NCBI GenBank assembly: GCA_944371315.1
Contig: CALVXN010000004.1
Location: forward strand, 1 to 45,049
Direction: 5' to 3'
Length of the DNA: 45,049 bases
Source of the DNA: an uncultured Bacilli bacterium
GTDB lineage: Bacteria > Bacillota_I > Bacilli_A > RF39 > UBA660
Shown here one piece after another: positions 6,541 through 40,665 of the stretch. The notes under the pieces are model-generated. The model made no database searches. It was given only the letters and a program-made list of their open reading frames with translations, and had not been told where the DNA came from. The translations under genes and the position numbers were made by a program. Position 1 is the first letter of the stretch. Each line of letters opens with the position of its first letter.

Positions 6541-6569
6541 TTTAAAAAGATTTCTTATTGTGTTAAAAT
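6541..6569 (+). promoter_or_regulatory. Extended -10 promoter for the repeat-protein/sigma operon
   Basis: TTTAAA (6541-6546), 17-nt spacer, TG-T-TAAAAT (6561-6569). Confidence 0.4.
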
Positions 6570-6604
6570 AATAACCATTGACTTATTATGAAAGGAATAT
6601 AAAA

Positions 6605-9600
6605 ATGGAACAAATATTTTGGGATAACTTCAAAAATACAGATAAATTATTAATTTTAGATTATGTAGGTAGACTGCCACTGATATACCAAAAAGCATTA
6701 CAAGATTGCTATGGTGAAGATTACAATGAATTATTAAAAAGGGGAGTTAAACTTACTGATGCCAAAAAAGCTATAAAAAAAATTAATTATTTAATTAACA
6801 ATCCTAATTATTATGTGCGTGCAACAAATTATAATCCAGCTAAAAATTTAAATGGAGAAATAAAGGTATTTAGTGGTAAACAAAAAAAAGTTTATTTAAA
6901 AGAAAAATTAAACTGTGATGAAAACACTATAAAAAGAATATCGATTATTTTCAGATTAAATCCAGAATTTAAAATTTTATATAAATATTTCGGTATAAAT
7001 TTAGACGAAAGTATTGACGAATTTGAATTATCAAGAGAAGATTATGAAACATTAAAAAAACTTTATAAGAATCTTAATGATTTTATAAGTAATAAATCAA
7101 TTTTAATAAGAAACATTTTAGGTTTAACATATAGTGAATTTGTATCTTATTTTGAAAAAGAATTAACGATAAATCCCAAGTTAAAAAAAATAAAACTGCT
7201 ATGTAAAAAGAACATAATTACTGAGCCTATAAACTTATTGGATATAGATGATAAAACATTTTTAAGTATAATTAAATGTATTTATTGTTTAAAACCAAAT
7301 ATATTAGTGAATCAAATACTTGCAAATAATAAATTTAATATTACATTACAAGAGTTCTTAGATGCAAATGAAAAAGAAATGGATTTTATATTAGAAAAAA
7401 ATAAAAATACTGATGTAGGTAACACTTTAAAAAATTTATGGCAAGACGATTACACAAAATTATGTATTGATAAAAATAATGATTCTATAAACGAATTAGT
7501 AACAATATTAAATGTTTTAATTAATGATTTATTTTCATATAGATATTTAATTAAAGTTAAAACATTACAAGAAATATTGGAAGCAACAGAAGAAGAAATA
7601 GATTTTTTAAAAAATAATTTATCAAAAGAAACATCTTCATATAAAATTATTTCAAAAGTATTTGGAAGTAACTTTAGAGGAACAAATGAGTTGAGATATA
7701 TGTTGCATGGCAAAGATAATGAAGCATATCATAATGCATTATTAAATTTGAAATTAAAACTAAGTAATTATAGAAATGGAAAATCTAGAAAATTTAAAAC
7801 ATTACAAGAATTATTAGGGGCATCAGAAGAAGAAATAGATTTTTTAAAAAAATATATTAATGATAATTATGAAAAATTTGCTATTATTATTAAAGTCTTT
7901 GGGAAAGAATTAAATGGGATAAATGAATTTTATAAATATTTAAGCGCCGAAGAAAAAGTAGCATATTCTGAAAAAATTCATATTTTAAGAATAAATTTAC
8001 AAAAGTTTAGAACAGGAAAATTACATGAATATAAAAAATTAAAAGATATATTAAATGTATCAGAAGAAGAAATAGAACACATAAAAAAATACTATCCTAA
8101 AACAACAAAAGGCTATCAAATTTTATTAAAAGTATTTGGAGAAAATTTGGATAATGATGACTCATTATATTGTAATTTATTAGAAAAAGAAAAAAATTTA
8201 TATCGATATACATTGCAAGCTTTAAATAGGTTTTTAAAAGATGGCATTAAAAAATATAAAACTTTACAAGAAATACTTGAAGCAACAGAAGAAGAAATGG
8301 AATTTTTAAAACAAAAATATCCTAAAAATACAAAAAATTATATTTTGCTTATAAAAGTATTTGGAAATAATTTTGAAAATTCAAATTATAATTATGACAA
8401 ACTAAATGGGGACGAAAAGAAAAAATACAGAAGTGCTTTAAAATCAATAAGGAAATTTTTAGAAAAACATAGAAAAAATTTAATAAAAAATGGTAAAACA
8501 TTAGCCGAAATAATAAAAATATCACCAGAAGAAATTGAATATATAAAACAACAATATCCTAAAAATACAAAAAACTATAAAATTATAGTTAAGGTATTTG
8601 GCATAGAATTAAAGGACACAAATGAAAAATTAAATTGTTTAACCAACGAAGAAAGAAAAACCTACTATAACGCTCTAAATTGCTTAAAAAGATTTATTAA
8701 AAGAAGTGAAACAAAGTGTAAACCTAAAACTTTACAAGAGTTATTAAAAGCAACAGAAAAAGAAATAGATTTTTTAAATAAAAAAATATCTAAAAAAACA
8801 AAGACTTATACTATATTATCAAAAGTATTTGGTAATGATTTTAAAAAAACAAATAAATGTTATGATAGTTTAACAACACTAGAAAAAAGAACTTTTTCAC
8901 AGACAATAATAAGATTAAAAAGCCTTTTAGAAAAATACAGAGAAACAAAGAAATTTGATTTTAAAACACTTTCCCAAATATTAGGCGCGACAAAAGAAGA
9001 AATAGAATTTTTGATGGATGAAGCAGATAAAAGTTCAAAAATTTACAAAGTGATTTTAAAAGTATTTGGAGAGGATTTTGAAGGAACTAACGAAAAGAAG
9101 TTTTTATTAAATAATGAAGAAAAAAAGACATATAATAATGCAATATCATCATTAAAAGCTAGATTAAAAAATTATAGGAAAAATAAAAATATTAAATATA
9201 AAACTTTACAAGAAATACTTGAAGCAACAGAAGAAGAAATAGACTTTTTAAGTGAAATTACTCCTAAAAAAACTAAAAATTATGTTGTTCTTGTTAAAGT
9301 TTTTGGAGAAAGTTTTAAAGGAACAAATGAACTATATGAACAACTAGCTGATGAAGAGAAGGTAACTTATTTTGCAGCAATAAAATCATTATCAGTAAGG
9401 CTAAAAAAATATCGTGACAATGGAAAAGATTATAAAACCTTGCAAGAAATACTAAATGCAACAGATGAAGAAATGAATTATTTAAGTAAAATTTACCCTC
9501 AAAATACAAGAAGTTATCAATTTTTGGTAAGTATGTTTGGAATAGATTTTAGAAATATAGGAAATTTGAGTAAATTATCTAGTGAAGCAAATATGTTGTT

Positions 9601-10012
9601 AAATGATACGATAGCAATATTACAAACATATTTATGTATGCAAAGAGAAAATACGAAAGATGGAAATTTACAACAAATCGAAACAGAAGGCCCTGTTGAA
9701 ATTTTAACAAGTAAAGAATATACAACGGTGGAAACACCATTTAAACATCCATTTTTTAAAGAATTTTTAATATTACTACCTATTGAATATCAATATATTA
9801 CAGCATTAAGATTAGGTTTAGTATATGATGGAAAAATTCATTCCATTGAAGAATTAGCGGAAATATTTAATATTGATATTGAAACTGCAAGAGAAAGATG
9901 TTCAAAAGGAATAAACATATTTATATTAATAATTGAAAGATATAAAGAATTGTATAATCAAAACGTCCCAAATATTGATGCACTAATAGAAAACATAAAA
10001 TTAGTTTTATAG
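6605..10012 (+). CDS. Giant repeat protein (1135 aa) with no sigma domain: FWDNF cap, about 12-13 copies of the ~78-aa helical repeat, and a C-terminal sigma4/YlxM-like HTH
   Basis: Uninterrupted ORF. ATG 6605 is preceded by a GAAAGGA RBS. The track TTG start at 6578 would lie at the predicted transcription start. Repeats and the C-terminal domain are paralogous to the ORFs at 10025 and 14406. Confidence 0.85.
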   Translation: MEQIFWDNFKNTDKLLILDYVGRLPLIYQKALQDCYGEDYNELLKRGVKLTDAKKAIKKINYLINNPNYYVRATNYNPAKNLNGEIKVFSGKQKKVYLKEKLNCDENTIKRISIIFRLNPEFKILYKYFGINLDESIDEFELSREDYETLKKLYKNLNDFISNKSILIRNILGLTYSEFVSYFEKELTINPKLKKIKLLCKKNIITEPINLLDIDDKTFLSIIKCIYCLKPNILVNQILANNKFNITLQEFLDANEKEMDFILEKNKNTDVGNTLKNLWQDDYTKLCIDKNNDSINELVTILNVLINDLFSYRYLIKVKTLQEILEATEEEIDFLKNNLSKETSSYKIISKVFGSNFRGTNELRYMLHGKDNEAYHNALLNLKLKLSNYRNGKSRKFKTLQELLGASEEEIDFLKKYINDNYEKFAIIIKVFGKELNGINEFYKYLSAEEKVAYSEKIHILRINLQKFRTGKLHEYKKLKDILNVSEEEIEHIKKYYPKTTKGYQILLKVFGENLDNDDSLYCNLLEKEKNLYRYTLQALNRFLKDGIKKYKTLQEILEATEEEMEFLKQKYPKNTKNYILLIKVFGNNFENSNYNYDKLNGDEKKKYRSALKSIRKFLEKHRKNLIKNGKTLAEIIKISPEEIEYIKQQYPKNTKNYKIIVKVFGIELKDTNEKLNCLTNEERKTYYNALNCLKRFIKRSETKCKPKTLQELLKATEKEIDFLNKKISKKTKTYTILSKVFGNDFKKTNKCYDSLTTLEKRTFSQTIIRLKSLLEKYRETKKFDFKTLSQILGATKEEIEFLMDEADKSSKIYKVILKVFGEDFEGTNEKKFLLNNEEKKTYNNAISSLKARLKNYRKNKNIKYKTLQEILEATEEEIDFLSEITPKKTKNYVVLVKVFGESFKGTNELYEQLADEEKVTYFAAIKSLSVRLKKYRDNGKDYKTLQEILNATDEEMNYLSKIYPQNTRSYQFLVSMFGIDFRNIGNLSKLSSEANMLLNDTIAILQTYLCMQRENTKDGNLQQIETEGPVEILTSKEYTTVETPFKHPFFKEFLILLPIEYQYITALRLGLVYDGKIHSIEELAEIFNIDIETARERCSKGINIFILIIERYKELYNQNVPNIDALIENIKLVL
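7559..9667 (+). repeat. Nine well-conserved in-frame tandem coding repeats (mean 78.1 aa, about 234 nt)
   Basis: Anchors [18 protein letters not shown]...YxILxKVFGxxFxGTN...LxxEEKxxYxxAIxxLKxxLKxYR recur at about 7559, 7796, 8036, 8259, 8497, 8727, 8966, 9201 and 9436. Three or four degenerate copies lie upstream (about 6890-7558). Confidence 0.9.
8252..8298 (+). repeat. 47-nt exact direct repeat (partner at 9194-9240)
   Basis: AAATATAAAACTTTACAAGAAATACTTGAAGCAACAGAAGAAGAAAT occurs twice, 942 nt (314 codons) apart and in frame. Confidence 0.9.
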
Positions 10013-10024: not shown

Positions 10025-13000
10025 ATGAAAAATAGTATTTTATTATATCAGCTTATGCAAGAATATGGTTTTTATAATAAATCAAGTGAATTTTATATTG
10101 AAATTATAAAAAAATATGAAATAAATGGCGAAGTTAATAGACAAGACATAATAAAAATTAGAGAAAGTATATTAAAAAAAATAAAATGGGATATAAAAAA
10201 TTTAAATATTGATTGGCTGATAAATTTGTTCTTAAAAGTTAAAACATTAAGCGATTTATCAAAGCTATTAAATTTATTAAATAAATATACTATAGTTTTA
10301 GATTTTAGTTTAATTGAAAGTTTAATAAATAATAATTCGCAAGTTGATGCTTTAATATTTAGTTTTTTAAAAAAAGGAAAAAATATAACAATTTCATATA
10401 TAGATAGAATTAGTGATAATGAGTTAGTAACTGAACTTTTAATTGCCTATGCAACTATAAAAAATATCTTAATAAATGAATCAGAAAGAGAAGCAAACGA
10501 ATATTATGAAAATGCCCCCCAAAATTTTAAAATTGATGATTCAATAGGCATGTATTTAAAAGAAATAGGTAGTATACCATTATTATCAAAAGAAGAAGAA
10601 CTTGAATTGTTTAAAAAGATAGAAATGGGTAGTAAACAAGCAAAAGATAGAGTAATTGAAGCAAATTTACGTCTAGCAGCTTCTATTGCCAAAAAATATT
10701 TGAACAAAGGTTTAGGGCTACAAGACCTTATTCAAGAAGGAAATATAGGGATTATGAAGGCAGTAGAAAGGTTTGATTATAAGAAGGGATACAAATTTTC
10801 TACTTATGCTACCTGGTGGATTAGACAAACTATTACAAGGGCAATAAGTGAACAATCTAGACCCATTAGAGTGCCAGTTTATATGGATGAAAATATAAAA
10901 AATTTACATATAGCGAAAAATAATTTATCAATTAAGCTAAATAGAGAACCAACTATTGAGGAAATTGCCGAAGTATTAAATATGACACCAGATAAAGTAT
11001 TAGAAATAATTAGATTTGACACAGAAACATCAACAGCATCATTAAATGCTACAGTTGGTGATGAAGATGATTCAGAGCTAGGGAATTTCATTGAAGATAC
11101 TTTTTTTGAATCTCCAACAAAAACTTTTGAACAAAAAGATTTACGTATTAGGTTAAATGAGATAATTAATGAATTAGATGAAAGAGAAAAATCAGTTATA
11201 ATGTATAGATTTGGTTTAATAGATGGAAAACCTTATACACTTGAAGAAATAGGTAGAATATTAAATGTTACAAGGGAAAGAATTAGACAAATTGAAAAAA
11301 AAGCTTTAAGAAAATTAGGTAACCCTGTAAGAGCTAAAAAAATAGAAGATTATTATGAATCTAATGATATTGATTATACAATAGCAAAAGGATTTTGGAA
11401 TAATTTCATACATTATACAAAAGATATTATATTTTTAATAATTGATAATGATCTTAAAAAAGATTTAAAAAGCGCATTGTATAAAGTTTTTGGAAAAGAT
11501 TTATCAAAAGTAAAAATTAAAAATTCAAGTGAAACAGCAAAAGCAATTGAAGCAATAGAAGCAATTAAAACAATTTTAAAAACAAAAGATAAAAGCCAGT
11601 ATGAAATAACTTTACAAGAATATTTAAAAGCAACCGATGAAGAATATGAAAATTTAAAAAAGATTATTATATGTTCTTCTTACTGTGAAATATTATCAGA
11701 ATTATTTGGTAGTAATTTTGATCAACCAAAATCAGGTATAATAGCATCGCCAAGTAATGAGGCAACTTATTATAATATTGCATTTTGTTATTTAAAAAAT
11801 TGTTTAAATAAACGATGCGAAGTTCTACCTGAATTTAGATTAGGAACGCTACAGGAGATACTTAATGCAAACAAAGAAGAAATAAAATATTTAAAAGATA
11901 GCGTATTAAGTAAAACGGCTAACCGTTCTATAATAATAAAAGTTTTTGGAAATAACTTAGATCAAATAAATTCAGGTTATTATGAATTAGAATATAGTGA
12001 AAAAAATAAATATTTTAAATCTATTTCGTATTTAAAAAAAGAATTAACTAATTACAGAAAATTAAATTCAAGTAATAATATAACTTTGCAAGAAATACTA
12101 AATGCAACTGATGAAGAAATGTTATTTATAAAATGTAAAATTATAAATGATTCTTATTTTCAAATAATATTAAGAGTTTTTGGAAATGAATTAAACCAAA
12201 CAAATAAAAGCTTTAATGAATTAAGCGAAGAAGAAAAAATAGAATATAATAAATGTATAAGAAGTTTAAAAGACAAAATACGAGGATTTAGAGTATTTAA
12301 CAATAATAGAAGAAATTTGCAAAAGTATTTAAACGCATCTGATGAAGAAATGGTTTATTTAAATCAAACGTATATAGCTTCAGCAAAATTAAAAAATATT
12401 ATCTATGGAATATATGGTGAAAATTTAAACGAATTTAACGTTTATTTTTACGCTAGCTTATCTGATAAAGAGTTATTTAATTATAGTTCATTTATAACAA
12501 ATTTGCAAAAAAAATTAGAAAAACATCGCCATGAGCAAAAAGATTGTAAAACTATTCAAGAACTTTTAGAACTATCAAATGAAGAATTAGAATTAATTAG
12601 ACTTTATTATATAAATAAATCAGATAGATACCAAATATTAATAGAAGTATTCGGAGAAAATTTAGACCAAACAAATAAAATAGTTTGTTCATTTAATAAT
12701 CATAAAAATCAAACCTATAATAACGCTTTAAATGATTTAAGAAAAACAATAAAAATGCACAGGTTAATAGTAGGGGTTGGAAAAGCTATTTTTGAAATTT
12801 TAAATATGTCAATTGACGAATTTAATTTGATTAAACAAAACTTTTCACAAAATTTTGCAAATTTTAATGTTTTAATAAAAGTATTTGGGGATAATTTTGA
12901 TAAAACTGATGAAAACTATCATAATTTATCAATTGAAGAAAAAGTAGAATATATTAAAGCATTAGAAGAGTTTACTAAGTGTTTGATATCTGTTAGAACA

Positions 13001-13630
13001 TACAAAACTAAACATCAAACATTACAAGAAATACTGGAAGCTACAGAAGAAGAAATAGCATTTATAAAAGATAATTATCCACAAAATACAAAAAATTATG
13101 ATATTTTAGTCAAAGTCTTTGGCATAGATTTCACAAATAATAATTATATTTTAACTGAATTAAATGATTTTGAGAAAGATCAATATTACCGAGCAATAGA
13201 TTGTTTAAGAAAATATTTAAAAAATTATAGGAAAGGTAAAAATAAATTACCTAAAAAAGAAGAGTTAAAATTACCAAATGATACTACTAAAATAGATAAA
13301 CAAGATGACATAGAATATTTAGATGCAATACCTGATATAAATTTAAATGAAATTAAAACACCTTTTACGCATCCATATTTTCAAGAATTTATTAATATTT
13401 TACCAGAAGAGTATCGTATTATAACTGCTAAAAGAATGGGATTAAGTGATGGTTGCATCCATTCTTTAACAAGCCTAGCAAAAGAATTTAAAATAAGTCC
13501 ACAAGAGGTATATACCAAATGCGAAAATGGCATAGCATTATTTATATTAATAGTTAAAACTTACCAAACCACATTTAATAAAGAATTACCAATTTTAGAT
13601 TTAGATATGTTATTAAAACGTCTTATATAA
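10025..13630 (+). CDS. Primary-like (RpoD/SigA-type) sigma-70 factor fused to a novel N-terminal domain, 7 helical repeats and a C-terminal HTH (1201 aa)
   Basis: aa 171-444 (10535-11356) carry regions 1.2-4.2: [81 protein letters not shown] and [39 protein letters not shown] sits 12 nt after the stop of the upstream ORF. Confidence 0.9.
11606..13246 (+). repeat. Seven in-frame ~78-aa tandem coding repeats of the same family
   Basis: Anchors xTLQE[IY]Lx A[TS][DE]EE occur at about 11606, 11846, 12081, 12313, 12550, 12787 and 13018. A 23-nt exact match TTGCAAGAAATACTAAATGCAAC is shared with the 6605 ORF (about 9438 and about 12087). Confidence 0.85.
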
Positions 13631-13633
13631 AAA

Positions 13634-14332
13634 TTAAATATTTTTGTTTTTAATAAATTCAGTGAGCATTTTAGTAAGTGCTCTTTTTTCAATTCTAGAA
13701 ACATAACTTCTAGATATTTTTAACTCTTTTGCTATTTCTTTTTGCGTCATTTCCTTAGTGTTAAATAATCCATATCTTTTAACAATAATTTCTTTTTCAC
13801 GATCATTTAAAAGTTTTAGATATTTATTTAATAAATTAATATTGTTTTTAATTTCAAGTTGATCAAATAAATCTTTATCCTTATCTTTTATTACATCTAT
13901 TAAACTTATTTCATTTCCATCTTTATCATAACCAATAGCATCATTTAAACTAACAGTAACATTAACATGTTTATTAGCTCTAAAATGCATTAATAATTCA
14001 TTTTGAATACATCTAGCAGCATAAGTAGTAATTTTTGTTTTTTTATCATTATTATATGTATCAATTCCTTTAATAAGACCAATAGTTCCAATACTTATTA
14101 AATCATCAGTATCAACATCTTTGGTATCAAACTTTTTAACTATATGTGCAACCAAACGTAAATTATGCTCAATAAGTTTATTGCGAGCATTTTTATCTCC
14201 ATTTAACATGTCATTTATACATTTTTCTTCTTCTATAGCATTAAGTGGTTCAGGAAAAACATTATTAGAATAACTTCCTGTAAAAAACAACATATCTTTA
14301 ATAATATTTAACAAATTAAATAACATAAACAC
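13634..14332 (-). CDS. sigK: Sporulation sigma factor K precursor (pro-sigma-K), uninterrupted
   Basis: LIEHNLRLVAHIVKKF, DLISIGTIGLIKGI, TYAARCIQNELLMH, VSLNDAIGYDKDGNEISLIDV and ISRSYVSRIEKRAL match B. subtilis SigK rather than SigE. The hydrophobic N-terminal pro-sequence ends ...FFTGS / YSNNVFPEPL. AGGGGTG RBS upstream. Confidence 0.9.
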   Translation of the reverse strand: MFMLFNLLNIIKDMLFFTGSYSNNVFPEPLNAIEEEKCINDMLNGDKNARNKLIEHNLRLVAHIVKKFDTKDVDTDDLISIGTIGLIKGIDTYNNDKKTKITTYAARCIQNELLMHFRANKHVNVTVSLNDAIGYDKDGNEISLIDVIKDKDKDLFDQLEIKNNINLLNKYLKLLNDREKEIIVKRYGLFNTKEMTQKEIAKELKISRSYVSRIEKRALTKMLTEFIKNKNI

Positions 14333-14350
14333 CCCTATACTTTATTTTAT

Positions 14351-14378
14351 TTGCAATTTTTAAATAATATGTTAAAAT
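14351..14378 (+). promoter_or_regulatory. Extended -10 sigma-A-type promoter for the 775-aa sigma-repeat gene
   Basis: TTGCAA (14351-14356), 16-nt spacer ending in TGT, TAAAAT (14373-14378). It lies in the 73-nt divergent region shared with sigK. Confidence 0.5.
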
Positions 14379-14405
14379 ATATAACTATTACTGGGGGAAT
14401 TAATA

Positions 14406-16733
14406 ATGGATATAAGTGTGATTGTAGAAAAATTAAGTGAAGAATTTTCTTTTTACAATAAACCATACGAATATTATTTTAAGATATGTAATGAAATATT
14501 ATGTGATGATGCAAATTTAATGTATAAATTTTGTTATGAAAAAGTAGTTTTAGATATAAAAAACGATTGGAAAAGTTTAAAAATTGGTTGGTTTATTGCA
14601 ATATTTAAAGAAAATTTAAATGGAATGTTAGAAATATTAACTAAATTTGGATTAGTGATAGATAATACTAATTTTAAGCAAATTATAAAAAAATATCCTG
14701 ATTTTGAAAATACTTTATGTGATTTAGTAGAAAACGATGCTTATTTAGATGAAAATGAAACATTAAAAAAACTAATTAAATTATACTTAAGTTATACAGA
14801 AAGCAAAATGAAAAATAAACAAGATAAGGATATATTATTGTGGGAAGAACAGTTAGAAATATTTAAGATTTTAAAAGAATTAAGTAAAGAACCAGAAAAA
14901 AATAAAACTTCCATAGCTTATTATTATGATTTACTAGTAGAGCAATATAAAAATTTTGTTCGATCCCTAATACCAAAATATGAACAAGAAAAAGTAGAAT
15001 ATGATGATTTAGTTCAAGAAGGATTCATTGGATTAATTAATGCAATTAGAAATTTTGATTATACAAAGAGTTATAAATTTTCATCATATGCTTATGTTGT
15101 TATAAAAAACGCTATTAGGAAATACATAAATAAAAACATTAGATCAATAAGAATTCCTGATTCAATGTTAAACGATTATTTTAGAATAATATATACTCAA
15201 AGAGATTATTATATGTTAAATGGAAAAGAAGCAAGCGAAGAAAAACTATCAGAAATGTTATGTATGTCAATAGAAAAAATTAGAAATGTTTTAATGTGCT
15301 GTGAAGATACAATATCATTATATGATTCTTTAGGTAGGGGACCAGAAGAAGCAGAATACACTTTATTGTGTGCAATAAAAAATGAATCGTCCCCATTACC
15401 AGATGAAATATATGAAAGAAAACAAATAAATTTGATGATAGAAGAATTGTTTAGTGTTTTAACGGACATTCAAAGAAAAGTAATTGAACAATATTTTGGA
15501 TTTTATAATCAAAAACCTAAATCAATTCAAAATATAGCAGATGAACTTGGTTGTTCCAGAGAAAATATAGATCAAATAAGAAGTAATGCATTAAAACGAA
15601 TGAGAAAACACTTAGCTGATAAAAAGGATAATGATTTAAATACCTTTAGTAAATTTTCGTTAAATACAAATTATTTTTGGTATAACTTTATAGGTTTTAA
15701 AAAGTCTGAAGTATTAGAAGCTATAAACGAACTTGTAAATGAAGAAAATTTAAGTTATTTAGAACAAAAATCCTTAATAGATAGATTTGGTAAAAAATAT
15801 AATTTATTAAATAAAGTAGATGAAGAAACAATAAAAGTTGTTAGTGTTGCTATAGAAAAGATAAAAGAAAAACTTCTTGAAATACGAAAACGACAATCAA
15901 TGTTAAAAACCAAGATTGAAATAGGCAGTTTAATGGATATTTTAGATGCAACGATTGATGAAATAAAATATCTTAGATCAACTAGAAAAAAAGATAGTAA
16001 AAGCATAAATTTACTTACTAGATTATTTAATGATGATTTTTTAAGAGAAGGATTAATACCAGTTTATTTAAGTAAAACTGAATTAAGAACATATTATTCT
16101 GCTATAAGTGCATTAAGAGAATCATTAAAACTTTATAGAAAAAAAGAAAAAAATAAAAAGTATTACTTTGGCTTAACACTAAAACAAATATTAAATATAA
16201 CGGGTGAAGAAATTGAATTTTTAAAAAGGACGATTAATCCTAAATCTGCTTATTATTCAGTATTAACTAAATGCTTTGGAACTTCATTAGAAGAAGAAAA
16301 TAAAAATGAAAAATTAGATGAAAAAGAATTAAAATTATTAAAAAATGCTATAAACACAATGGAAGTGCTAATTTTTTATTATAGAGAGGAAGAAACTAAA
16401 AGACTATTAAAAATCTATAGCTATTTTAACATACCTGAAGAAACTAATGAAAAAGTAGTTACTCCATTTAGTAATCCAATGTTTAAATTATTTATTCAAT
16501 GTTTGCCTGATGAGCTACAAACTGTAACAGCGATGAGAATTGGGGCAGATAACGGTATTATTAAATCAATATTTGAAATTGCAATGTATTTAAATGAAGA
16601 TGAGGAAGAAGTAGCAAGAAAATGCAAAATAGGAATAGATTTATTTAAAACATTAGTAAGTGAATATAAAAATGAGTATGATAATGATTTTGAAGATTAT
16701 TTAATAGAAAGTAGAAAAAAATACGGTAAATAA
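14406..16733 (+). CDS. Divergent sigma-70 family factor fused to the same N-terminal domain, about 2 helical repeats and the C-terminal HTH (775 aa)
   Basis: Region 2: DLVQEGFIGLINAIRNFDYTKSYKFSSYAYVVIKNAIRKY. Region 4: LTDIQRKVIEQYFGF...SIQNIADELGCSRENIDQIRSNALKRMRKHL. These are followed by FWYNF (tgg at 15678), the repeats, then TPFSNPMF...LPDE...TAMRIG. GGGGGA RBS upstream. Confidence 0.85.
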   Translation: MDISVIVEKLSEEFSFYNKPYEYYFKICNEILCDDANLMYKFCYEKVVLDIKNDWKSLKIGWFIAIFKENLNGMLEILTKFGLVIDNTNFKQIIKKYPDFENTLCDLVENDAYLDENETLKKLIKLYLSYTESKMKNKQDKDILLWEEQLEIFKILKELSKEPEKNKTSIAYYYDLLVEQYKNFVRSLIPKYEQEKVEYDDLVQEGFIGLINAIRNFDYTKSYKFSSYAYVVIKNAIRKYINKNIRSIRIPDSMLNDYFRIIYTQRDYYMLNGKEASEEKLSEMLCMSIEKIRNVLMCCEDTISLYDSLGRGPEEAEYTLLCAIKNESSPLPDEIYERKQINLMIEELFSVLTDIQRKVIEQYFGFYNQKPKSIQNIADELGCSRENIDQIRSNALKRMRKHLADKKDNDLNTFSKFSLNTNYFWYNFIGFKKSEVLEAINELVNEENLSYLEQKSLIDRFGKKYNLLNKVDEETIKVVSVAIEKIKEKLLEIRKRQSMLKTKIEIGSLMDILDATIDEIKYLRSTRKKDSKSINLLTRLFNDDFLREGLIPVYLSKTELRTYYSAISALRESLKLYRKKEKNKKYYFGLTLKQILNITGEEIEFLKRTINPKSAYYSVLTKCFGTSLEEENKNEKLDEKELKLLKNAINTMEVLIFYYREEETKRLLKIYSYFNIPEETNEKVVTPFSNPMFKLFIQCLPDELQTVTAMRIGADNGIIKSIFEIAMYLNEDEEEVARKCKIGIDLFKTLVSEYKNEYDNDFEDYLIESRKKYGK
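15927..16400 (+). repeat. Two in-frame copies of the ~78-aa helical repeat
   Basis: SLMDILDATIDEIKYL...LTRLFNDDF...YYSAISALRESLKLYRK and LTLKQILNITGEEIEFLK...LTKCFGTSL...LKNAINTMEVL. Confidence 0.7.
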
Positions 16734-16834
16734 CATTAATTATGATATACTATTAAAGAATGGAGAAGAAAAATATGGTAAATAACATTAATTATGATAT
16801 ACTATTAAAGAATGGAGAAGAAAAATATGGTAAA
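16725..16834 (+). repeat. Perfect 52-nt tandem duplication (2.1 copies) spanning the stop of the 775-aa ORF and the RBS/start of polA
   Basis: 16725-16776 and 16777-16828 are identical (GGTAAATAACATTAATTATGATATACTATTAAAGAATGGAGAAGAAAAATAT). A third copy starts at 16829 (GGTAAA). Each copy carries TGATATACT (extended -10) and GGAG. Confidence 0.95.
16795..16803 (+). promoter_or_regulatory. Extended -10 element (TG-A-TATACT) proximal to polA, duplicated at 16743-16751
   Basis: TGATATACT at 16795-16803, with GGAG at 16813-16816 and ATG at 16827. Confidence 0.4.
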
Positions 16835-19394: not shown

Positions 19395-20225
19395 ATGCCG
19401 GAAATAGCAGAAGTTGAAACTGTTAGAAATACTTTAAAAAGAATGATTTTAAATAAAAAAATTAAAGAGGTAAATATAATTTATTCTAAAATGATAGAAA
19501 GCGATATAGATGATTTTAAAAATATATTGCCAGGAAAAACAATAATGGATATAAAAAGGATTGGAAAATGGTTAATATTTGATTTAGGAAAATATTATTT
19601 GCTTAGTCATTTGAGGATGGAAGGTAAATACTTTGTGAAAAAACATGATGAAGAGATTAATAAACATGAGCATGTAATTATCACATTTACTGATAATACA
19701 GATTTAAGGTATCATGATACAAGAAAATTTGGAAGAATGAATTTAATAAAAAAAGAAGATTTATATAAGGTAGAAGCAATAAAAAAACAAGGACTTGAAC
19801 CAACTGATAAAAATTTAACTGCAAATTATTTATATGAAAAAATTCATAAAAAAAATTTGCCTATTAAAACAATTTTACTAGATCAAACTATAATTTCGGG
19901 TTTAGGTAACATATATGCTGATGAAGTTTTATTTTCATCTAAAATAAATCCATTAAAAAAAGGAAAAGATATTACTCTAAATGAGTGCGAAAATATAAAG
20001 GTGAGTTCTAAAAAAGTTATTGAAGAAGCTATAAAGTGTGGTGGCACAACTATAAGAAGTTATACCTCATCACTGGGAGTTACAGGAAGATTTCAACAAT
20101 ACTTAAATGTTCATAAAAAAGAAGGGGAAAAATGCAAAAATTGTGGAAATATAATAAAAAAAATTAAAGTTGGTGGAAGAAGCACTTATTATTGTCCCAA
20201 TTGTCAAAAAGAAGATATGGAGTAA
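19395..20225 (+). CDS. mutM: Formamidopyrimidine-DNA glycosylase
   Basis: MPEIAEVETV N-terminus (catalytic Pro2/Glu3), H2TH region, and C-terminal zinc finger CKNCG...YYCPNCQ. Confidence 0.9.
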   Translation: MPEIAEVETVRNTLKRMILNKKIKEVNIIYSKMIESDIDDFKNILPGKTIMDIKRIGKWLIFDLGKYYLLSHLRMEGKYFVKKHDEEINKHEHVIITFTDNTDLRYHDTRKFGRMNLIKKEDLYKVEAIKKQGLEPTDKNLTANYLYEKIHKKNLPIKTILLDQTIISGLGNIYADEVLFSSKINPLKKGKDITLNECENIKVSSKKVIEEAIKCGGTTIRSYTSSLGVTGRFQQYLNVHKKEGEKCKNCGNIIKKIKVGGRSTYYCPNCQKEDME

Positions 20226-20227
20226 AA

Positions 20228-21121
20228 ATGGAGTTTTTAAAGAAAAATTTAATAAGTATAGTTTCAATGTTAATTATTTTAATAATTTTTATGTTATCTT
20301 TTTTTTCAGTAAAAAAGGAATATGATAGTATGTATAGTAGTCAAAAAAATTTATATTATAGTTGTCTTGAAAATAAAAATGATAATTGTCTTGAATACAT
20401 AAAAGAATTTGAAGAGAATGATGTAAAGACTGCTGATACAATTACTGTATTTTTTACTTCTTTAATGGAACAAAAAGCTAGTATAATGAATTATTTGTTA
20501 GTTATATTTTTAGTAGTTCCATCATTAATTCCATTTTCTAAAATATGTAAAAATAAAATAATTAACAATATACTAAATAGGAAAAAATATAATGAATTTT
20601 TAAAAGAAACATTTATTAATTGTTATAAAAATATTTGGATAATTTTTATCCCATTATTAATATTATTTATAGCATCTTTAATGTATTCAGGTCATTTTAA
20701 TTATGATTACATATTAAATAGTGAAAGCTATTATTCATTCTATGTTTACATAAATCCATTAATATATTGCATTTTATATTTTGTATCAATATTATTTTTT
20801 ACTATATTTTATATTAATATAGGTTTAATAGTTGCAAGGAAAAATAGTAATATAGCAATAGTAGGAATTGAAAGCTTTTTATTATTTATATTAATAGATA
20901 TTATATTTGAAATAATATTTGGTTTATTAATTAGCAAGATAATATTTAATTCATTTTCATCAAGATTTAATTTATTAAATATTTTAAATATTGGTTATGC
21001 TAAAAACATATTAGAAATGATTTTAATTCCATTAATATTAGTAATAATTACTTTTATTATTTTAAAAATCATTTATAAAAGTAAAGAAAAATTTATAATA
21101 GATTGTAATAAAAATAATTAA
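20228..21121 (+). CDS. Polytopic membrane protein, probable ABC-2-type permease subunit
   Basis: About 6 hydrophobic segments. ATG 20228 with GGAG RBS lies just after the mutM stop. An ABC ATPase follows. Confidence 0.55.
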   Translation: MEFLKKNLISIVSMLIILIIFMLSFFSVKKEYDSMYSSQKNLYYSCLENKNDNCLEYIKEFEENDVKTADTITVFFTSLMEQKASIMNYLLVIFLVVPSLIPFSKICKNKIINNILNRKKYNEFLKETFINCYKNIWIIFIPLLILFIASLMYSGHFNYDYILNSESYYSFYVYINPLIYCILYFVSILFFTIFYINIGLIVARKNSNIAIVGIESFLLFILIDIIFEIIFGLLISKIIFNSFSSRFNLLNILNIGYAKNILEMILIPLILVIITFIILKIIYKSKEKFIIDCNKNN

Positions 21122-21137: not shown

Positions 21138-21773
21138 ATGGAAATATTAATAAGAAATTTATCAAAAAAGTTTAAAGATAATTTAGTGCTTGATAATGTC
21201 AATTTAAAATTTGAATCAGGAAATATATATGGTTTTGTAGGAGAAAATGGCAGTGGGAAAAGCGTTTTATTAAAATTAATTTGTTCATTTTATATCCCAA
21301 GTAATGGAGAAATATTAATTGATAACATAAATTACTGTGATAATTCAAGTTTTCCAAATAATTTAAGGGCTTTTATTGATATACCCAGTTTTTATCCGGA
21401 AAAAACAGGATTTGAAAATTTGAAAATACTTGCTAAAATTCAAAATAAAATTAATGATGAAAAAATTATAGAGACTTTAAAAATTGTTAATTTATATGAA
21501 GAAAAAGATAAAAAATTTTATGAATACTCAATGGGTATGAAACAAAAATTAGGTATAGCAAGTGTAATTATGGAAGATCCTAAAATCATGATTTTTGATG
21601 AACCTTTTAATGGAGTAGATCAAAAAAGTAAGGAAAAAATAATTGATTATTTAAAAAAAATAAAAAATAAAAAAATAATAATTGTAAGTAGTCATATAAA
21701 AGAGGATATAAACAAATTATGCGATAAAATATATTGTTTTGAAAAAGGAACCATTAAATTAAATGAAAACTAA
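21138..21773 (+). CDS. ABC transporter ATP-binding protein (short, 211 aa)
   Basis: Walker A GENGSGKS, signature SMGMKQKLG, Walker B IMIFDEPFNGVD, H-loop SSHI. Confidence 0.9.
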   Translation: MEILIRNLSKKFKDNLVLDNVNLKFESGNIYGFVGENGSGKSVLLKLICSFYIPSNGEILIDNINYCDNSSFPNNLRAFIDIPSFYPEKTGFENLKILAKIQNKINDEKIIETLKIVNLYEEKDKKFYEYSMGMKQKLGIASVIMEDPKIMIFDEPFNGVDQKSKEKIIDYLKKIKNKKIIIVSSHIKEDINKLCDKIYCFEKGTIKLNEN

Positions 21774-22488
21774 AGAAAATAAATATAAATTATATTTTTT
21801 AATACTATTATTAGGTAGCTTAACATTGGGCATAAGTTATGGTGGAGGACGAAATGACTTTTTTACAATGATTTTATGTTCATACTCTTATATAGGAACA
21901 ATTTTAATATTAATTTGTCTAATACTTTATAATACAATTATTATAGTAAAAGATATTGATAATAACTATTTATTTTTATGTCGTTTTAAAAATATAAAAC
22001 AATATTATAAATTTACAATTACAAGGTGCATAAAATCTAATTTGCTTATTTTACTAATTTTTTTGCTTTTAAATATAATTGTTTCTTTTTTCTTTTGCTA
22101 TAATAACTTTAAAATACCAACAAATATATACAATCAAAGCTTTATTTTAATATTTGCTTATTGGACACTAAAATTAGTTATTATTATTCTATTATTTATA
22201 ATATTATCAATATTTATTTATAAGATATTTAATAAATTTGGAATACTAATTTATAGTCTAACTTTAATTTTATGTAATATTCTATCTTACTATCAAAAAA
22301 ATATAGTAACTATTGGTATAAATAGTTTGCATAATAATTTTTCCATTAATTTTGTTAATTATTTGACAATAAATAATTTTGCTACTTTATCAAATGATAT
22401 AAAATATTTTTTAATTTATTTAATGTCTTTGGTATTAATTATTATTGTATTTTATTTAATAGGAAATAAAAAGAAAGATATAAACTAA
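21763..22488 (+). CDS. Polytopic membrane protein, probable second permease subunit
   Basis: About 6 TM segments. It overlaps the ATPase stop by 11 nt. Confidence 0.55.
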   Translation: MKTKENKYKLYFLILLLGSLTLGISYGGGRNDFFTMILCSYSYIGTILILICLILYNTIIIVKDIDNNYLFLCRFKNIKQYYKFTITRCIKSNLLILLIFLLLNIIVSFFFCYNNFKIPTNIYNQSFILIFAYWTLKLVIIILLFIILSIFIYKIFNKFGILIYSLTLILCNILSYYQKNIVTIGINSLHNNFSINFVNYLTINNFATLSNDIKYFLIYLMSLVLIIIVFYLIGNKKKDIN

Positions 22489-22558: not shown

Positions 22559-23716
22559 GTGCAATTTAGAGATTATATAAAGTTACCTGATGCTAGTGGT
22601 AATAATTTTTATTATCATCCAGAACAATTAACTCCAATAAAAGAAGAAATAGAAGAGTTTTTAACACTAAGCCCTGAAATATCTGATTTGCACTTAGCTA
22701 AAAAAGTTTTATTTTCTCACGAAATACAATCAAATAATCAAGTTGAAGGTTATGGTTATGATGTTAGTTTAATAGAAGATGTTATAAAAAGGAAAACTCA
22801 AAGAGTAAAAAGTGAAGTTGTTAAAAGAAGAATAGAAAATCTTTATCGAGGATATCAATATATTTTAAGACATAGAAAAATAGATGAAGAACATTTAAGA
22901 GAATTATATCAAATATTAAGTAAAGATTTGATTGAATATAGAGACTTAATTAGAATGGGAGAATATTATAGGACTGATACAGTTTATATTTTACGTAATG
23001 GCAGATTAGATGATAGTGCGATTGATGAAGGAGTATTATGGACACAAATTCCATATTTAATAGAAAAATATTTTGAATTTTTACATTCTTTAAATTTTAA
23101 TGAATCTATGACAGATGAATATATAAAATCCCAAATTATGCATTTTTACTTTGTTTTTATTCATCCATATTTTGATGCAAATGGAAGAACTTCAAGAACT
23201 ATGGCCTTATGGTATTTGTTAAATAAGAAAGATTATCCTTTTATAATATTTAATCGTGGAATTAGTTTTGCAGGTGCAAAATATGGTAAATTAATTGCTG
23301 ATGCAAAAGATACAAAAGATTTAACAAAATTTTTAAATTTTATGTTAGAAACAGTAAAATTAGAAATGGAAAAAGAAACTGTAATGCAAACAATAGCTAA
23401 TAATTGTAATCATAGATTAAATGGAGTAGATTATCAAACACTTTTATATTTTTTAAGTATGAAAAGAAATAAAACAGTAACTGATTTTGCGTCGTTTTAT
23501 AATCAAAAAAATGAAAAGAAGAGAGTATTTGAAATATATAAAGAAATGATTTTGCCTTTGATTGAAATGGATATTTTAGAAGTTGTAGGGTATTCTAAAA
23601 AAATGTTTTCCCCAGATTTAAATAATATGTTTTTAGAATTAAATCCCCAAATAGTCCCAAAAGAAGAAGAGATGCAATTAAAAAGATTGAAAGTATTTCA
23701 ATCTTCTAAAAAGTAA
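22559..23716 (+). CDS. Fic family protein (AMPylase-type fold)
   Basis: The Fic active-site loop HPYFDANGRTSR resembles HPFx[DE]GNGRxxR. GTG start with AAAGGGGGA RBS. Confidence 0.85.
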   Translation: MQFRDYIKLPDASGNNFYYHPEQLTPIKEEIEEFLTLSPEISDLHLAKKVLFSHEIQSNNQVEGYGYDVSLIEDVIKRKTQRVKSEVVKRRIENLYRGYQYILRHRKIDEEHLRELYQILSKDLIEYRDLIRMGEYYRTDTVYILRNGRLDDSAIDEGVLWTQIPYLIEKYFEFLHSLNFNESMTDEYIKSQIMHFYFVFIHPYFDANGRTSRTMALWYLLNKKDYPFIIFNRGISFAGAKYGKLIADAKDTKDLTKFLNFMLETVKLEMEKETVMQTIANNCNHRLNGVDYQTLLYFLSMKRNKTVTDFASFYNQKNEKKRVFEIYKEMILPLIEMDILEVVGYSKKMFSPDLNNMFLELNPQIVPKEEEMQLKRLKVFQSSKK

Positions 23717-25116: not shown

Positions 25117-25150
25117 AAAGCAATTAGATTAATTTTTAATTGCTTTTTTG
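25117..25150. terminator. Bidirectional terminator between convergent genes
   Basis: AAAGCAATTA (25117-25126) pairs with TAATTGCTTT (25137-25146). It is flanked by A and T runs. Confidence 0.55.
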
Positions 25151-26157
25151 TTTGTCCAAATTTTAATATATATTAACATAAATAATAAAATCATAAATAT
25201 AAATAGTATAGTAGGAAAACTTTTATATATTATCATTGAATTATAAAAGCTATTAGCAGTATATTGATTAACTATAATTAATAGTATTAGATTTATTAAA
25301 AATGGTATATAACTTTTTTTAACATTTATAATATTTTTAATCTTTAATGAACTAACTGACATACAAATAAATATATCAAAAAACCATCCTACTGAAATAA
25401 AATTTTCAATATTTTCAATAAATTTGAAAAAGCTTATTTTTCTTAAAACAGAATACTCAGGATAACTATAAATATTTACTAAGTTTCCTAAAACAATTGT
25501 TAAAGTTAACACTACTACTAGAATTGTAAATGAACTAATTAAATAATATTTTAAACTATTTTTAAAGTCTATATTTTCATCTACTAATGTAATAAATGGA
25601 GCAGTAGATAAAATTGCAAATATTAAACTAGTTTTAAATATATTAGTAGGTTTAGTAGTAAAAAAGGGAAGTAAATTATTAAAATCAAATTCATTTGTCA
25701 AAAGACAAGTTTTTAAAATAACTAAAACAATACTTATAACAAATAATATTTGTGCAACGTATATTATCTTTTTTATAGATTTTGTGTTTAAAAAAGATGC
25801 TAAAAATATGAATGGTAAACAAGAAATAATTGATGGATTAAATGGAAGGAAATATGAATATAAAAAAGTGGATAAAATAATTAGTAAGACAAAAATTCCA
25901 AATAAAATGAAACCTATTAGTATAATTTTAATTATAATGCTTAAAATAGAATCATTTTTTAAAAATGAGCTTAAAGGCATATTTATCTTTTTTTTAAAAT
26001 AATTTATTAAATAGATAATAGCAATTCCTAAAAGTGAACCTAATATTACTGCAATATAAGCATCTTTATCACTATATAAAAATAAAGTTGAAATACCACC
26101 GCCTAAAAACAAACTGCGAGCTAAAAAGTAAGTTAAAATATTAGAATTATTTTTCAT
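25129..26157 (-). CDS. Spore germination protein, GerAB/GerKB-type permease subunit
   Basis: About 10 TM helices and last gene of a gerA-type operon. The ATG at 26157 is preceded by GAGGTG. Confidence 0.8.
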   Translation of the reverse strand: MKNNSNILTYFLARSLFLGGGISTLFLYSDKDAYIAVILGSLLGIAIIYLINYFKKKINMPLSSFLKNDSILSIIIKIILIGFILFGIFVLLIILSTFLYSYFLPFNPSIISCLPFIFLASFLNTKSIKKIIYVAQILFVISIVLVILKTCLLTNEFDFNNLLPFFTTKPTNIFKTSLIFAILSTAPFITLVDENIDFKNSLKYYLISSFTILVVVLTLTIVLGNLVNIYSYPEYSVLRKISFFKFIENIENFISVGWFFDIFICMSVSSLKIKNIINVKKSYIPFLINLILLIIVNQYTANSFYNSMIIYKSFPTILFIFMILLFMLIYIKIWTNKKAIKN

Positions 26158-27223
26158 CGCGCACCTCATAAATTAAACCTTTTTTATTAATATTGAAATT
26201 AATATTACTTTTTATTTTTAAATTTAACCAATAATTTTCTTCTTTTTCTCTAGTTTTTTGATAATAGCTTTTTGATAATCCTAAAATATCACTCTTATAT
26301 TTTTGAATTTTTTCTAAAAAGTCATTGATCTTATTATTCATTATTTTAGTAAAGTCATTGTTTAAATTATTTAAAATATTCAAATTTCTTACATCATAAT
26401 TAGTTTCATTATCCATTATCTTTCCTTCTAAGCCACCTTCAACAAAAATCTTATTATCTGATATATATGTTTTTGTATCACCAGATGTAATAGCTACAGA
26501 AAAATACAGATTATCGTATTCTTTCGAAAAAATTGGACGATAAAAATTATTTGTTAAAATATTATAAATAGTAGCTTCATCATTATTTAGTTTTTCTTTA
26601 AATTCGTATTCATCAAATATTAATAAACCATCTATTTTAAATTGTTCATCATTTAAGGTAATGTTTGAAAAACATGTATCAATACCAAAAGTAATAATTT
26701 CATCAATCACTTGATCAAATGTTTTCATAACACTACTATTTGATGAATAATTATTACTTTCTAAAAGAGATATAATACTTGAACTCACTACAGGATTATT
26801 TTTAGTAGTATTATTAAGTATTTCTTTTGGAGATGAATCAATTGATGAAATAACGTAAAAATTTTCTCTAAAATATGTGCTTCTTATAAAATAATCAATT
26901 ATAGTTTGAAATTTATCCTGAATAATAGAATCACTCAAAATCATTAATTTAACATGAGTATAATTGGCTTTATCTGCAATCAAATCAGCAGTTTTTTCTA
27001 TTGCTTTAGCAAGTGATTTATCACTATTTGTTTTTGTATATGAACTAATTTTAGATGATTCTTTATCACCAGAATCATTTAATATTTCTAATGTGATAAT
27101 ATATTTATCATCCTCATAATCAATTCCAATAGCACTAATAATACCTAAATTATTTACTTCTTGATAATCATAACAGCCGGAAAGTAAAAAAATAAAAGTA
27201 AGTAATAAAATTGCTTTTTTCAT
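26147..27223 (-). CDS. Spore germination protein, GerAC-type lipoprotein subunit
   Basis: Lipobox LLSGC at the N-terminus. Size and position fit the Ger(x)C family. Confidence 0.8.
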   Translation of the reverse strand: MKKAILLLTFIFLLSGCYDYQEVNNLGIISAIGIDYEDDKYIITLEILNDSGDKESSKISSYTKTNSDKSLAKAIEKTADLIADKANYTHVKLMILSDSIIQDKFQTIIDYFIRSTYFRENFYVISSIDSSPKEILNNTTKNNPVVSSSIISLLESNNYSSNSSVMKTFDQVIDEIITFGIDTCFSNITLNDEQFKIDGLLIFDEYEFKEKLNNDEATIYNILTNNFYRPIFSKEYDNLYFSVAITSGDTKTYISDNKIFVEGGLEGKIMDNETNYDVRNLNILNNLNNDFTKIMNNKINDFLEKIQKYKSDILGLSKSYYQKTREKEENYWLNLKIKSNINFNINKKGLIYEVRDEK

Positions 27224-31873: not shown

Positions 31874-31928
31874 ATTTACTTTCATGTATAACGTTTGTTA
31901 TAATATTAAACAATGTGGGGGAATATAT

Positions 31929-39639: not shown

Positions 39640-40665
39640 GTGTTACCAGAAAAAAGAAAAGAATTAATAATTTTAGGAGCATCAATAATTGGTGTTATAA
39701 TAGTAATATTATTAATGTATAATCTTGCTAAATTTATGCACAACCGTAGTGAAAAATTAGAAGCTCCCGATGATGCATATGATACATATTATAATTATTA
39801 TGGGGTAATTACTGACAAAGATGATAACTACCAATTAGTAGGAATTAATAGTGAGTATATAGAAAAAGAAATAGGATTAAGATCATTTTATCCAATAAAT
39901 AAAATGTATTATTATAATAATCATTTGCGTTTTTATTCAGATGCCATAAATGAACTTAGGTATGATAATGAAGAGGCAAAATATTATTTATATGAATTAA
40001 ATAATTTTTATAATAAAGATACAAGTGTTTATTTAACTAATGTATTTTTGATAAAATTAAATAAAAACACATTAAGTTATGAAAAATATGACGATGATGA
40101 AAACAAAATTATAAGTGAAAATGTAGAAAAAGACAATATATTAATATATGACAATAAAATATATTATATTACAAATGAAGGCGTAGAAGTATTTGATTTT
40201 GAATTGGAAAATAAAAATACATTGGTTGTTAAAAAAAGTAATACAAATATCAATTTATTACAAATGAATTTGAAATATTTAGTATATGATGTGGATGGAA
40301 CGTATTTTGTATATAATATAGAAACGGAAAAAACAATTAACATAAGCTATTATATAGAAAAAGATATTCGAAATGAATACAAATTTATAGCATTAACTAA
40401 TGATAGTTTTATATTTCAAACTACAAATAATTCTAATGATATAGTATTAAAAAAATTAAGGCTTTCAGATAATGTATTATTGAACAATTCATTTATCTTA
40501 GGCAATGAATCTATAGATAAATCAATTTATTTAAAAAATGGAATACTTTATGCAGAATTAATTGATGAAGAAGAAAATAAACGTAATGTAATTATGGATA
40601 TAGAAGGGGAAGAAATATTAAAAGAATTAAAAAATACATACATAACACTATGCAGTGTGGATTGA
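39640..40665 (+). CDS. Hypothetical membrane-anchored protein (possible beta-propeller-like ectodomain)
   Basis: GTG start with GGGTGA RBS, one N-terminal TM helix, and a Y/N-rich repetitive body. No confident family assignment. Confidence 0.5.
   Translation: MLPEKRKELIILGASIIGVIIVILLMYNLAKFMHNRSEKLEAPDDAYDTYYNYYGVITDKDDNYQLVGINSEYIEKEIGLRSFYPINKMYYYNNHLRFYSDAINELRYDNEEAKYYLYELNNFYNKDTSVYLTNVFLIKLNKNTLSYEKYDDDENKIISENVEKDNILIYDNKIYYITNEGVEVFDFELENKNTLVVKKSNTNINLLQMNLKYLVYDVDGTYFVYNIETEKTINISYYIEKDIRNEYKFIALTNDSFIFQTTNNSNDIVLKKLRLSDNVLLNNSFILGNESIDKSIYLKNGILYAELIDEEENKRNVIMDIEGEEILKELKNTYITLCSVD

Follow-up and report, generated by a model that had tools for sequence, protein, structure and literature searches.

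Group 1 (primary) sigma factors such as B. subtilis SigA, and the group 2 sigma factors (RpoS, M. tuberculosis SigB, Streptomyces HrdA-D and cyanobacterial SigB-E), which are primary-like and non-essential, are the closest described counterparts of the protein analysed here. To our knowledge, group 1 and group 2 sigmas end within a few residues of region 4.2, a surface for activators and the beta-flap, group 2 sigmas are about 300-350 amino acids (aa) long with no C-terminal extension, and none has been described in Bacillota. Regulatory C-terminal extensions are found in extracytoplasmic function (ECF, group 4) sigmas of the ECF41, ECF42 and CorE types; ECF sigmas have regions 2 and 4 only, and the extensions are SnoaL-like, TPR or Cys-rich and 100-200 aa long. 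Here we describe B1201, a 1201-aa protein encoded in a 45,049-nucleotide stretch of DNA from an uncultured Bacilli bacterium (assembly GCA_944371315.1, contig CALVXN010000004.1, positions 1 to 45,049; hereafter the window). An earlier reading of the window, made from its letters alone (the original prediction), had placed a primary-type sigma domain inside this protein. The main novelty of the locus is a lineage-restricted family of giant sigma factors, to which B1201 belongs, whose members carry a novel repeat domain and end in a domain resembling sigma-4. The parts of B1201 are as follows.

10025..13630, + strand: B1201, the 1201-aa giant sigma, a single uninterrupted open reading frame (ORF) of 1201 codons
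10025..10477, + strand: N-domain (aa 1-151), family-specific, at the place of region 1.1; conserved in 27 family representatives
10538..10630, + strand: sigma region 1.2 (aa 172-202); PF00140 Sigma70_r1_2, E 2.8e-11, motif at aa 176-188
10637..10864, + strand: sigma region 2 (aa 205-280), core binding and -10 melting/recognition; PF04542 (aa 211-279), E 1.8e-21
10889..11119, + strand: sigma region 3 (aa 289-365); PF04539 Sigma70_r3, E 4.4e-16
11141..11356, + strand: sigma region 4 (aa 373-444), -35 helix-turn-helix (HTH) and beta-flap contact; PF04545 (aa 381-431), E 4e-19
11387..11596, + strand: degenerate first repeat unit (aa 455-524, FWNNF...VFGKDL), which opens the C-terminal module; weak match of the repeat hidden Markov model (HMM) at 478-522
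11597..13240, + strand: seven clear repeats of ~78 aa (aa 525-1072); repeat HMM, independent E-values (iE) 1e-22 to 1e-31
13241..13351, + strand: acidic linker (aa 1073-1109), predicted to be disordered; predicted local distance difference test score (pLDDT) < 50 at model residues 235-271, isoelectric point (pI) 4.5
13352..13627, + strand: C-domain of ~90 aa (aa 1110-1201), degenerate and sigma-4-like; hhalign and reciprocal HMM matches

The sigma core of B1201 (aa 172-444) consists of sigma-70 regions 1.2, 2, 3 and 4, collinear with those of the group 1 primary sigma (B. subtilis SigA, 7CKQ chain F; models PRK09210 and TIGR02393). All four Pfam regions exceed their gathering cut-offs, PF04542 reaching 76.1 bits against a gathering score of 24 and PF04545 68.3 bits against 24.1, and the motifs of region 1.2 (aa 176-188), region 2 (aa 258-274) and region 4.2 (aa 405-431) were found where they had been quoted, which upheld the claim of a group-1-type sigma core inside a 1201-aa protein. 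The top match among solved structures was B. subtilis SigA (7CKQ_F) with 308 bits; group 1 sigmas scored 245-308 bits, compared with 220 bits for M. tuberculosis SigB and 205 bits for RpoS. Since the alignment spans SigA residues 84-371, and residue 371 is the last of SigA, the sigma core of B1201 is complete and about 750 aa lie past the normal sigma C-terminus. The Y/W aromatic cluster, the Q-T-R of region 2.4 and the RERIRQ of region 4.2 are kept, as had been predicted for the promoter-reading residues, and the DLIQEGN core-binding motif (for the beta' coiled-coil) and the sigma finger are retained as well. The sole notable change among the contact residues is at aa 286, in region 3.0 just upstream of region 3, where the His of canonical sigmas is Tyr. 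As judged from this alignment, the residues for binding core RNA polymerase (RNAP) and for recognising -10 (TATAAT-like) and -35 (TTGACA-like) elements are retained in B1201.

On either side of the core, B1201 departs from described sigma factors. The N-domain (pI 6.4; family HMM iE 7e-49 on B1201) matched no Pfam family, and PF03979 (Sigma70_r1_1) had no match in B1201. Its identification as a divergent region 1.1 was rejected on the basis of an hhalign probability of 0.6% against region 1.1 of canonical SigA, in line with the earlier statement that an unrelated domain replaces region 1.1. Region 4 is followed by a basic linker of ~80 aa (pI 9.1). The repeat HMM gave eight matches in B1201, seven clear and one degenerate, which bears out the proposed ~750 aa of repeats past region 4 and resolves them into units of ~78 aa with the consensus KTLQEIL.AT.EEI..LK.....TK.Y.IL.KVFG..F...N.....L...EK..Y..AI..L...L...R. 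No match to the repeat was found in Pfam, and none by profile against PDB sequences. AlphaFold2 modelled a single repeat (20-sequence alignment) as a compact five-helix domain with a pLDDT of 96.2 and a predicted template modelling score (pTM) of 0.83, for which the PDB held no significant fold match (best E 2.5). We are confident that the 78-aa repeat, as modelled, represents a novel five-helix domain. Its reading as a degenerate sigma HTH was rejected at the sequence level, with hhalign probabilities of 0.3% for sigma-4, 1.0% for sigma-3 and 0.1% for sigma-2. In a Foldseek search with three repeats plus the C-domain, the first 50 matches listed were all sigma factors and all weak (E >= 8e-3, TM 0.17), which is most simply explained by the C-domain. 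No tandem repeat was detectable at the DNA level in the array, indicating that the repeats are old and not a product of slippage or mis-assembly. The C-domain (family HMM iE 4e-39 on B1201) aligned to sigma-4 over 45 columns with an hhalign probability of 95% and E 3e-8, and the HMM matches were reciprocal; the extra terminal HTH of the original prediction is therefore a sigma-4-like domain. Its 4.1-like helix is recognisable, and the equivalent of the DNA-reading helix lacks basic residues. At pI 6.1 the repeat array is close to neutral; the pI of the C-domain is 6.9.

B1201 is the middle member of a tandem of three related genes, A1144, B1201 and C775, which are accompanied by the following features.

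6541..6569, + strand: promoter-like site upstream of A1144 (TTTAAA, 17 nucleotides (nt), TG-extended TAAAAT); consensus match
6605..10012, + strand: A1144, sigma-less paralogue with 11 repeats and the C-domain; family HMMs
13634..14332, - strand: sigK (sporulation sigma K), between B1201 and C775 and divergent from C775; NCBIfam
13664..13683, + strand: terminator-like hairpin and T-run, 34 nt past the B1201 stop codon; sequence scan
14406..16733, + strand: C775, divergent paralogue with N-domain, sigma regions 2-3-4, 2-3 repeats and C-domain; family HMMs and Pfam

A1144 most likely starts at the ATG at 6605, in agreement with its database orthologue P0121 (the ORF list gives a TTG at 6578). 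It stops 13 nt upstream of B1201, and the two genes are probably co-transcribed. The A1144 N-terminus aligns with the post-sigma-4 segments of B1201 and C775, and it is with this N-terminus and the C775 segment that the degenerate first unit of B1201 is collinear. A1144 has a pI of 9.1 and a ratio of nonsynonymous to synonymous substitution rates (dN/dS) of 0.22-0.34. In C775, region 2.3 reads FSSYAYVVIKNAIRKYI at aa 225-241: both melting tryptophans have become Val (WW to VV), the -12-reading Gln is Asn, and 33% of the canonical near-invariant columns (defined below) are kept. Given these changes, the -10 specificity of C775 may be quite different from the canonical one, or there may be none. 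The locus shows B1201 to be part of a tandemly duplicated, fast-diverging gene family that includes sigma-less copies.

A1144 and C775 are each preceded by a similar TG-extended -10-like element (TGTTAAAATA; 6541-6575 and 14333-14405), situated ~17 nt downstream of TTTGCA or TTTAAA; these extended -10-type sites, which include TGTTAAAAT, are consensus matches only. A promoter scan of the window, whose guanine-cytosine (GC) content is 23%, returned 88 sites compared with 101 expected from shuffles, that is no enrichment. The hairpin after B1201 falls within the 3' end of sigK, and the start codons of the divergent sigK and C775 are separated by only 73 base pairs (14333-14405). The placement of sigK by family genes recurs in L002, L003 and L013. 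A direct tandem repeat with a 52-nt unit (16701-16800; 1.9 copies at 89% match) runs from the end of C775 into the start of polA.

The extended architecture is not peculiar to one assembly. The 90%-identity cluster of B1201 has 62 members, derived from ENA, Logan and NCBI samples, and 14 of the 15 listed are 1200-1201 aa long, the other being a 133-aa fragment. Orthologues of B1201 in the related loci L002 and L012 are co-linear with it. Comparison with them gave an overall dN/dS of 0.23-0.25; the repeats stand at ~0.25 and the sigma core at 0.12-0.17. B1201 is under purifying selection along its whole length. An assembly artefact or strain-specific fusion was rejected on these grounds (uniform lengths across samples, co-linear orthologues, dN/dS) together with the missing DNA-level repeat, and the scenario of an unextended orthologue in close relatives, which had been named as a sign of such an artefact, is excluded by the lengths of the listed cluster members.

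A word-indexed search with the C-terminal 757 aa of B1201 returned only four proteins from a database of 5.8 billion, and an exhaustive HMMER search with the repeat profile (E <= 1e-3) found the repeat in only 101 clusters among 1.84 billion cluster representatives. Sigma-2 and/or sigma-4 domains occur in 44 of these 101 clusters, and both in 38. According to local HMM annotation, 24 clusters combine N-domain, sigma 2-3-4, repeats and C-domain and so show the full architecture, in 11 others the N-domain alone is missing, and 18 consist of repeats plus C-domain with no sigma; the rest are repeat-only proteins or fragments. Variants within the family have an extra internal sigma-4, duplicated C-domains or a reversed domain order. 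Three GTDB representative genomes carry the family: uncultured bacterium SI.A4 bin 190, of the same species as the window, 'uncultured Bacilli bacterium' BRZ_PF bin60 (L013), and Candidatus Onthocola stercoravium (Bacilli incertae sedis). In the GTDB genomes and in the human-gut contigs L015 and L016 the members form tandem pairs or triplets, for example of 1137, 280 and 848 aa in L013, 931, 521 and 551 aa in L014, and 754 and 881 aa in L016. No relatives were found in IMG/VR or among GenBank phages (INPHARED), and, the neighbouring genes being chromosomal, a phage or mobile origin was rejected. The family is confined to one lineage of uncultured gut Bacilli that are low in GC and form spores, namely Candidatus Onthocola and its relatives. 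We found no description of such giant repeat-bearing sigma factors in the literature, and the combination of N-domain, sigma regions 1.2-4.2, a variable number of ~78-aa five-helix repeats and a sigma-4-like C-domain constitutes a previously undescribed family. B1201 was recognised by the family HMMs for the N-domain, the C-domain and at least one 78-aa repeat, the three features by which membership is defined.

Two arrangements of family genes in relatives may be recorded here. At 5388-12219 of L013, three members stand in a row between sigK and polA: the 1137-aa member has an extra internal sigma-4 copy within its repeat array, the 280-aa protein is a stand-alone sigma matching family-HMM regions 2 and 3, and the 848-aa member matches region 3 weakly and in part, and has two C-domains in tandem. 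In L003 (910-4095) and L004 (903-4088), from a related species with 29% GC, the family gene that lies between sigK and polA is interrupted after codon 106 by an in-frame TAA, which divides the N-domain from a 941-aa remainder (P0123). Since the identical TAA is present in two independent samples, this is a real split gene or pseudogene.

The original prediction had left it undecided whether B1201 is the housekeeping sigma of the organism or a primary-like paralogue, and the evidence favours the second of these. Against the RpoD equivalog model PRK09210, B1201 scored 363.6 bits with a cut-off of 572, and against TIGR02393 (RpoD_Cterm) 311.9 bits with a cut-off of 354, falling below both, while the PolA, Fpg, S16 and SigK proteins encoded in the window pass their own NCBIfam models. 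To measure conservation, 117 canonical RpoD/SigA proteins were aligned, and the 147 columns with a conservation of 95% or more served as reference. The B1201 core keeps 75.5% of these near-invariant columns (36 changes), whereas canonical proteins keep 99% on average and 88% at the minimum. Its identity to canonical cores is 55% on average and 58% at most, compared with a mean of 79% and a minimum of 63% for canonical cores among themselves. The description of the core as 'nearly canonical' was therefore too strong: alignment with SigA, which had been proposed as a check, found the contact residues in place apart from aa 286, and the wider core less conserved than canonical cores are.

Rates of divergence point the same way. 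Between the window and the L013 organism, identity is 75.5% for PolA, 79% for Fpg and 83% for SigK, and the two most similar family sigma cores, those of B1201 and L13_1137, share only 52.8% identity. If B1201 were the housekeeping sigma, then its core should be more conserved than PolA, so that this value counts against a housekeeping role. Compared with the close orthologue P0122, B1201 is 91% identical in the N-domain, 90% in region 4, 83% in region 2 and 66% in regions 3.0-3.1, and by this comparison the regions normally frozen in primary sigmas (2 and 3.0) are the most variable. The extended architecture is also common to clearly non-housekeeping paralogues such as C775. Finally, as had been noted, B1201 does not stand beside dnaG, which was seen neither in the window nor in its 10-kb left flank (ezrA, thiI, ackA, recX) nor in any of the related loci examined; a look-up from the right edge of the window returned nothing. 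The canonical sigA genes recovered by the same search, P0159 in L007 and P0160 in L011, directly follow dnaG; they are the best-scoring short sigmas and lie on 37-38% GC contigs of other organisms. Given the failed RpoD cut-offs, the low conservation, the fast divergence, the lack of region 1.1 and the lack of a dnaG neighbour, we consider it quite likely that B1201 is a primary-like (group-2-like) paralogue rather than the sole housekeeping sigma.

The strongest competitor is that B1201 is the only primary sigma of its lineage. On this view region 1.1 was lost, the N-domain and the repeat/C-domain module were acquired, and the gene moved out of the dnaG operon before giving rise to more divergent paralogues. 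Several observations tell for this reading and against the paralogue. Regions 1.2-4.2 are present with their promoter-contact residues, the top structural match is SigA, and in a rough neighbour-joining tree B1201, P0122 and L13_1137 are nearest to canonical SigA. B1201 is the most SigA-like sigma of its locus, with a core omega of 0.12-0.17, and a housekeeping role in a fast-evolving lineage is possible. A canonical sigA with the AT-rich composition expected at 23% GC was absent among the best 120 of 8000 matches scored, which is weak evidence, and the argument from rates would lose force if, as is possible, B1201 and L13_1137 were not orthologues. Other low-GC uncultured genomes also encode long RpoD-like proteins that do not adjoin dnaG: P0002 (1171 aa), P0010 (1035 aa; L005 10001-13108) and P0014 (855 aa; L006 10001-12568) combine an N-terminal domain other than region 1.1 with an RpoD core and a long C-terminal extension, which in P0002 and P0010 contains one or two extra sigma-4-like copies. 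Unlike B1201, however, these proteins keep 88-93% of the invariant columns, and they gave no match to the N-domain, 78-aa repeat or C-domain HMMs; by these features they are a separate, analogous class of extended primary-type sigmas. Weighed against the missed equivalog thresholds and the divergence of the core, sole-primary status for B1201 seems unlikely to us.

By its tested sequence features B1201 fits the definition of group 2. Like group 2 sigmas it appears to be derived from group 1, has group-1-like regions 1.2-4.2 with similar promoter-reading residues and no region 1.1, has paralogues within its own family, and scores 205-220 bits against solved RpoS and SigB structures. It differs from them by the added N-domain, eight repeats and second sigma-4-like domain, just as it differs from SigA by its ~750 extra residues, its multi-copy, fast-evolving family and its position away from dnaG. 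Classification as an ECF sigma was rejected because regions 1.2 and 3 are present, and the 750-aa array is of a different, novel fold. On balance, B1201 is probably a working sigma-70-family initiation factor from the group 1 lineage, specialised in a group-2-like manner and belonging to the new giant-sigma family. It would be a first candidate for a group-2-like sigma in Bacillota. Automated annotation may call such genes rpoD or sigA, and the label alone should not be taken to mean 'housekeeping sigma'.

As a specialised group-2-like alternative sigma, B1201 would act alongside a conventional sigA that is probably encoded elsewhere in the genome. Established sigma structure suggests that it would assemble into holoenzyme at promoters of the TTGACA/TATAAT type and might respond differently to extended -10 elements. 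The end of region 4.2 would face outward from the core at the promoter's upstream boundary, and the repeat array and C-domain would project from sigma-4, upstream of the -35 element. The near-neutral charge of the array, a sigma-4 mimic that lacks DNA-reading residues, and the existence of the module as a separate, probably co-transcribed protein (A1144) favour a protein-interaction or regulatory appendage over a second DNA reader, a preference that we hold with low confidence. The ECF sigmas offer a precedent for such a role, since in them a domain attached behind region 4 modulates sigma activity, either in place of a separate anti-sigma factor or together with one. The module might act by autoinhibition, as a beta-flap decoy or by partner switching with A1144, which could compete or pair with B1201 for whatever the module binds, for example the beta-flap or a partner protein. 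Some features sit less easily with this picture: the basic pI of A1144 makes nucleic-acid binding by the repeats possible, the three-repeat AlphaFold2 model has a pTM of 0.44 and leaves the arrangement between repeats undefined, and any binding partner of the module is hypothetical. More speculative still is the proposal that the module is a new built-in control of sigma activity or RNAP targeting, in which sigma-fused (B1201, C775) and sigma-less (A1144) forms would compete or pair, perhaps over the beta-flap tip or a shared partner, in a partner-switch or decoy system; we regard it as a tentative minority view, of which the strongest version would have a B1201-type protein also serve as the only primary sigma of the lineage. 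About 750 residues, including a second, degenerate sigma-4, are attached past region 4.2, and this architecture has been conserved and expanded across a lineage of uncultured gut spore-formers, which implies that sigma is regulated, or RNAP targeted, in a way not described before. Three domains with no Pfam family are added by B1201: its N-domain, the five-helix repeat of 78 aa and its C-domain.

A further reading, compatible with that of a specialised group-2-like sigma, is that B1201 is a pro-sigma in which the N-domain and/or the C-terminal module inhibit the core until proteolysis frees a sigma of ~30 kDa. Pro-sigma-E and pro-sigma-K of sporulation are its analogues, and the setting suits it: the organism is of spore-former type, sigK is adjacent, and CotE and a gerA operon lie in the window. 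The basic linker after region 4 and the disordered acidic linker before the C-domain are consistent with processing, and the in-frame TAA of L003 and L004 has already detached the N-domain from a family member. On the other hand, purifying selection on the repeats and C-domain is comparable to that on the rest of B1201, and their occurrence as the stand-alone A1144 suggests a function of their own over that of a pro-sequence to be discarded. Neither a protease gene nor a known cleavage motif was found. The pro-sigma reading appears rather improbable.

MzaA of the MZA anti-phage system (NF041931) resembles B1201 in being an oversized sigma-70-family protein with a group-1-like C-terminal core; it differs in that its extra ~470 aa are N-terminal. 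Its model aligns to aa 204-446 of B1201 with 303.4 bits against a cut-off of 800, through model positions 474-716 only, and by this score, and with no MZA partner genes or defence context in the neighbourhood, the identification of B1201 as MzaA was rejected. That B1201 is not mainly an initiation factor, its core being an RNAP/DNA handle for a repeat scaffold or a conflict-system decoy for phage anti-sigma factors, would suit a family that diverges rapidly, duplicates in tandem, varies in repeat number and shuffles its architectures (sigma-less copies, extra internal sigma-4 copies, duplicated C-domains), and also the occurrence of sigma-family proteins in defence systems, but it is very improbable given that the residues for -10 melting and -35 reading have stayed intact under purifying selection, that the MzaA threshold is far from reached, and that the family has no phage or viral relatives and lies among housekeeping and sporulation genes.

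The remaining genes of the window are chromosomal and of spore-former type: rpsP, a KH-domain gene, polA, fpg, mutL, yqeG/yqeH, cysK and HinT, with sigK, CotE and a gerA-type germination operon as sporulation-type genes and VanY also present. The sigK product scored 313.8 bits against the NCBIfam SigK subfamily model (cut-off 252) and 298.5 bits against the SigK equivalog model, right at its threshold of 298.65. The gene is intact, with no skin-like insertion, and its product has an N-terminal extension that fits a pro-sequence. Four ORFs on the + strand, at 41423-43210 (595 aa), 39640-40665 (341 aa), 20192-21121 (309 aa) and 21763-22488 (241 aa), had no Pfam match, and the first three had no NCBIfam match. 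A Fic/DOC-domain protein (22559-23716, + strand) and a 605-aa BspA-type leucine-rich-repeat protein (31884-33701, + strand) are encoded amid the housekeeping genes, and the germination operon, at 25129-28665 on the - strand, comprises gerA, gerC and a spore permease gene.

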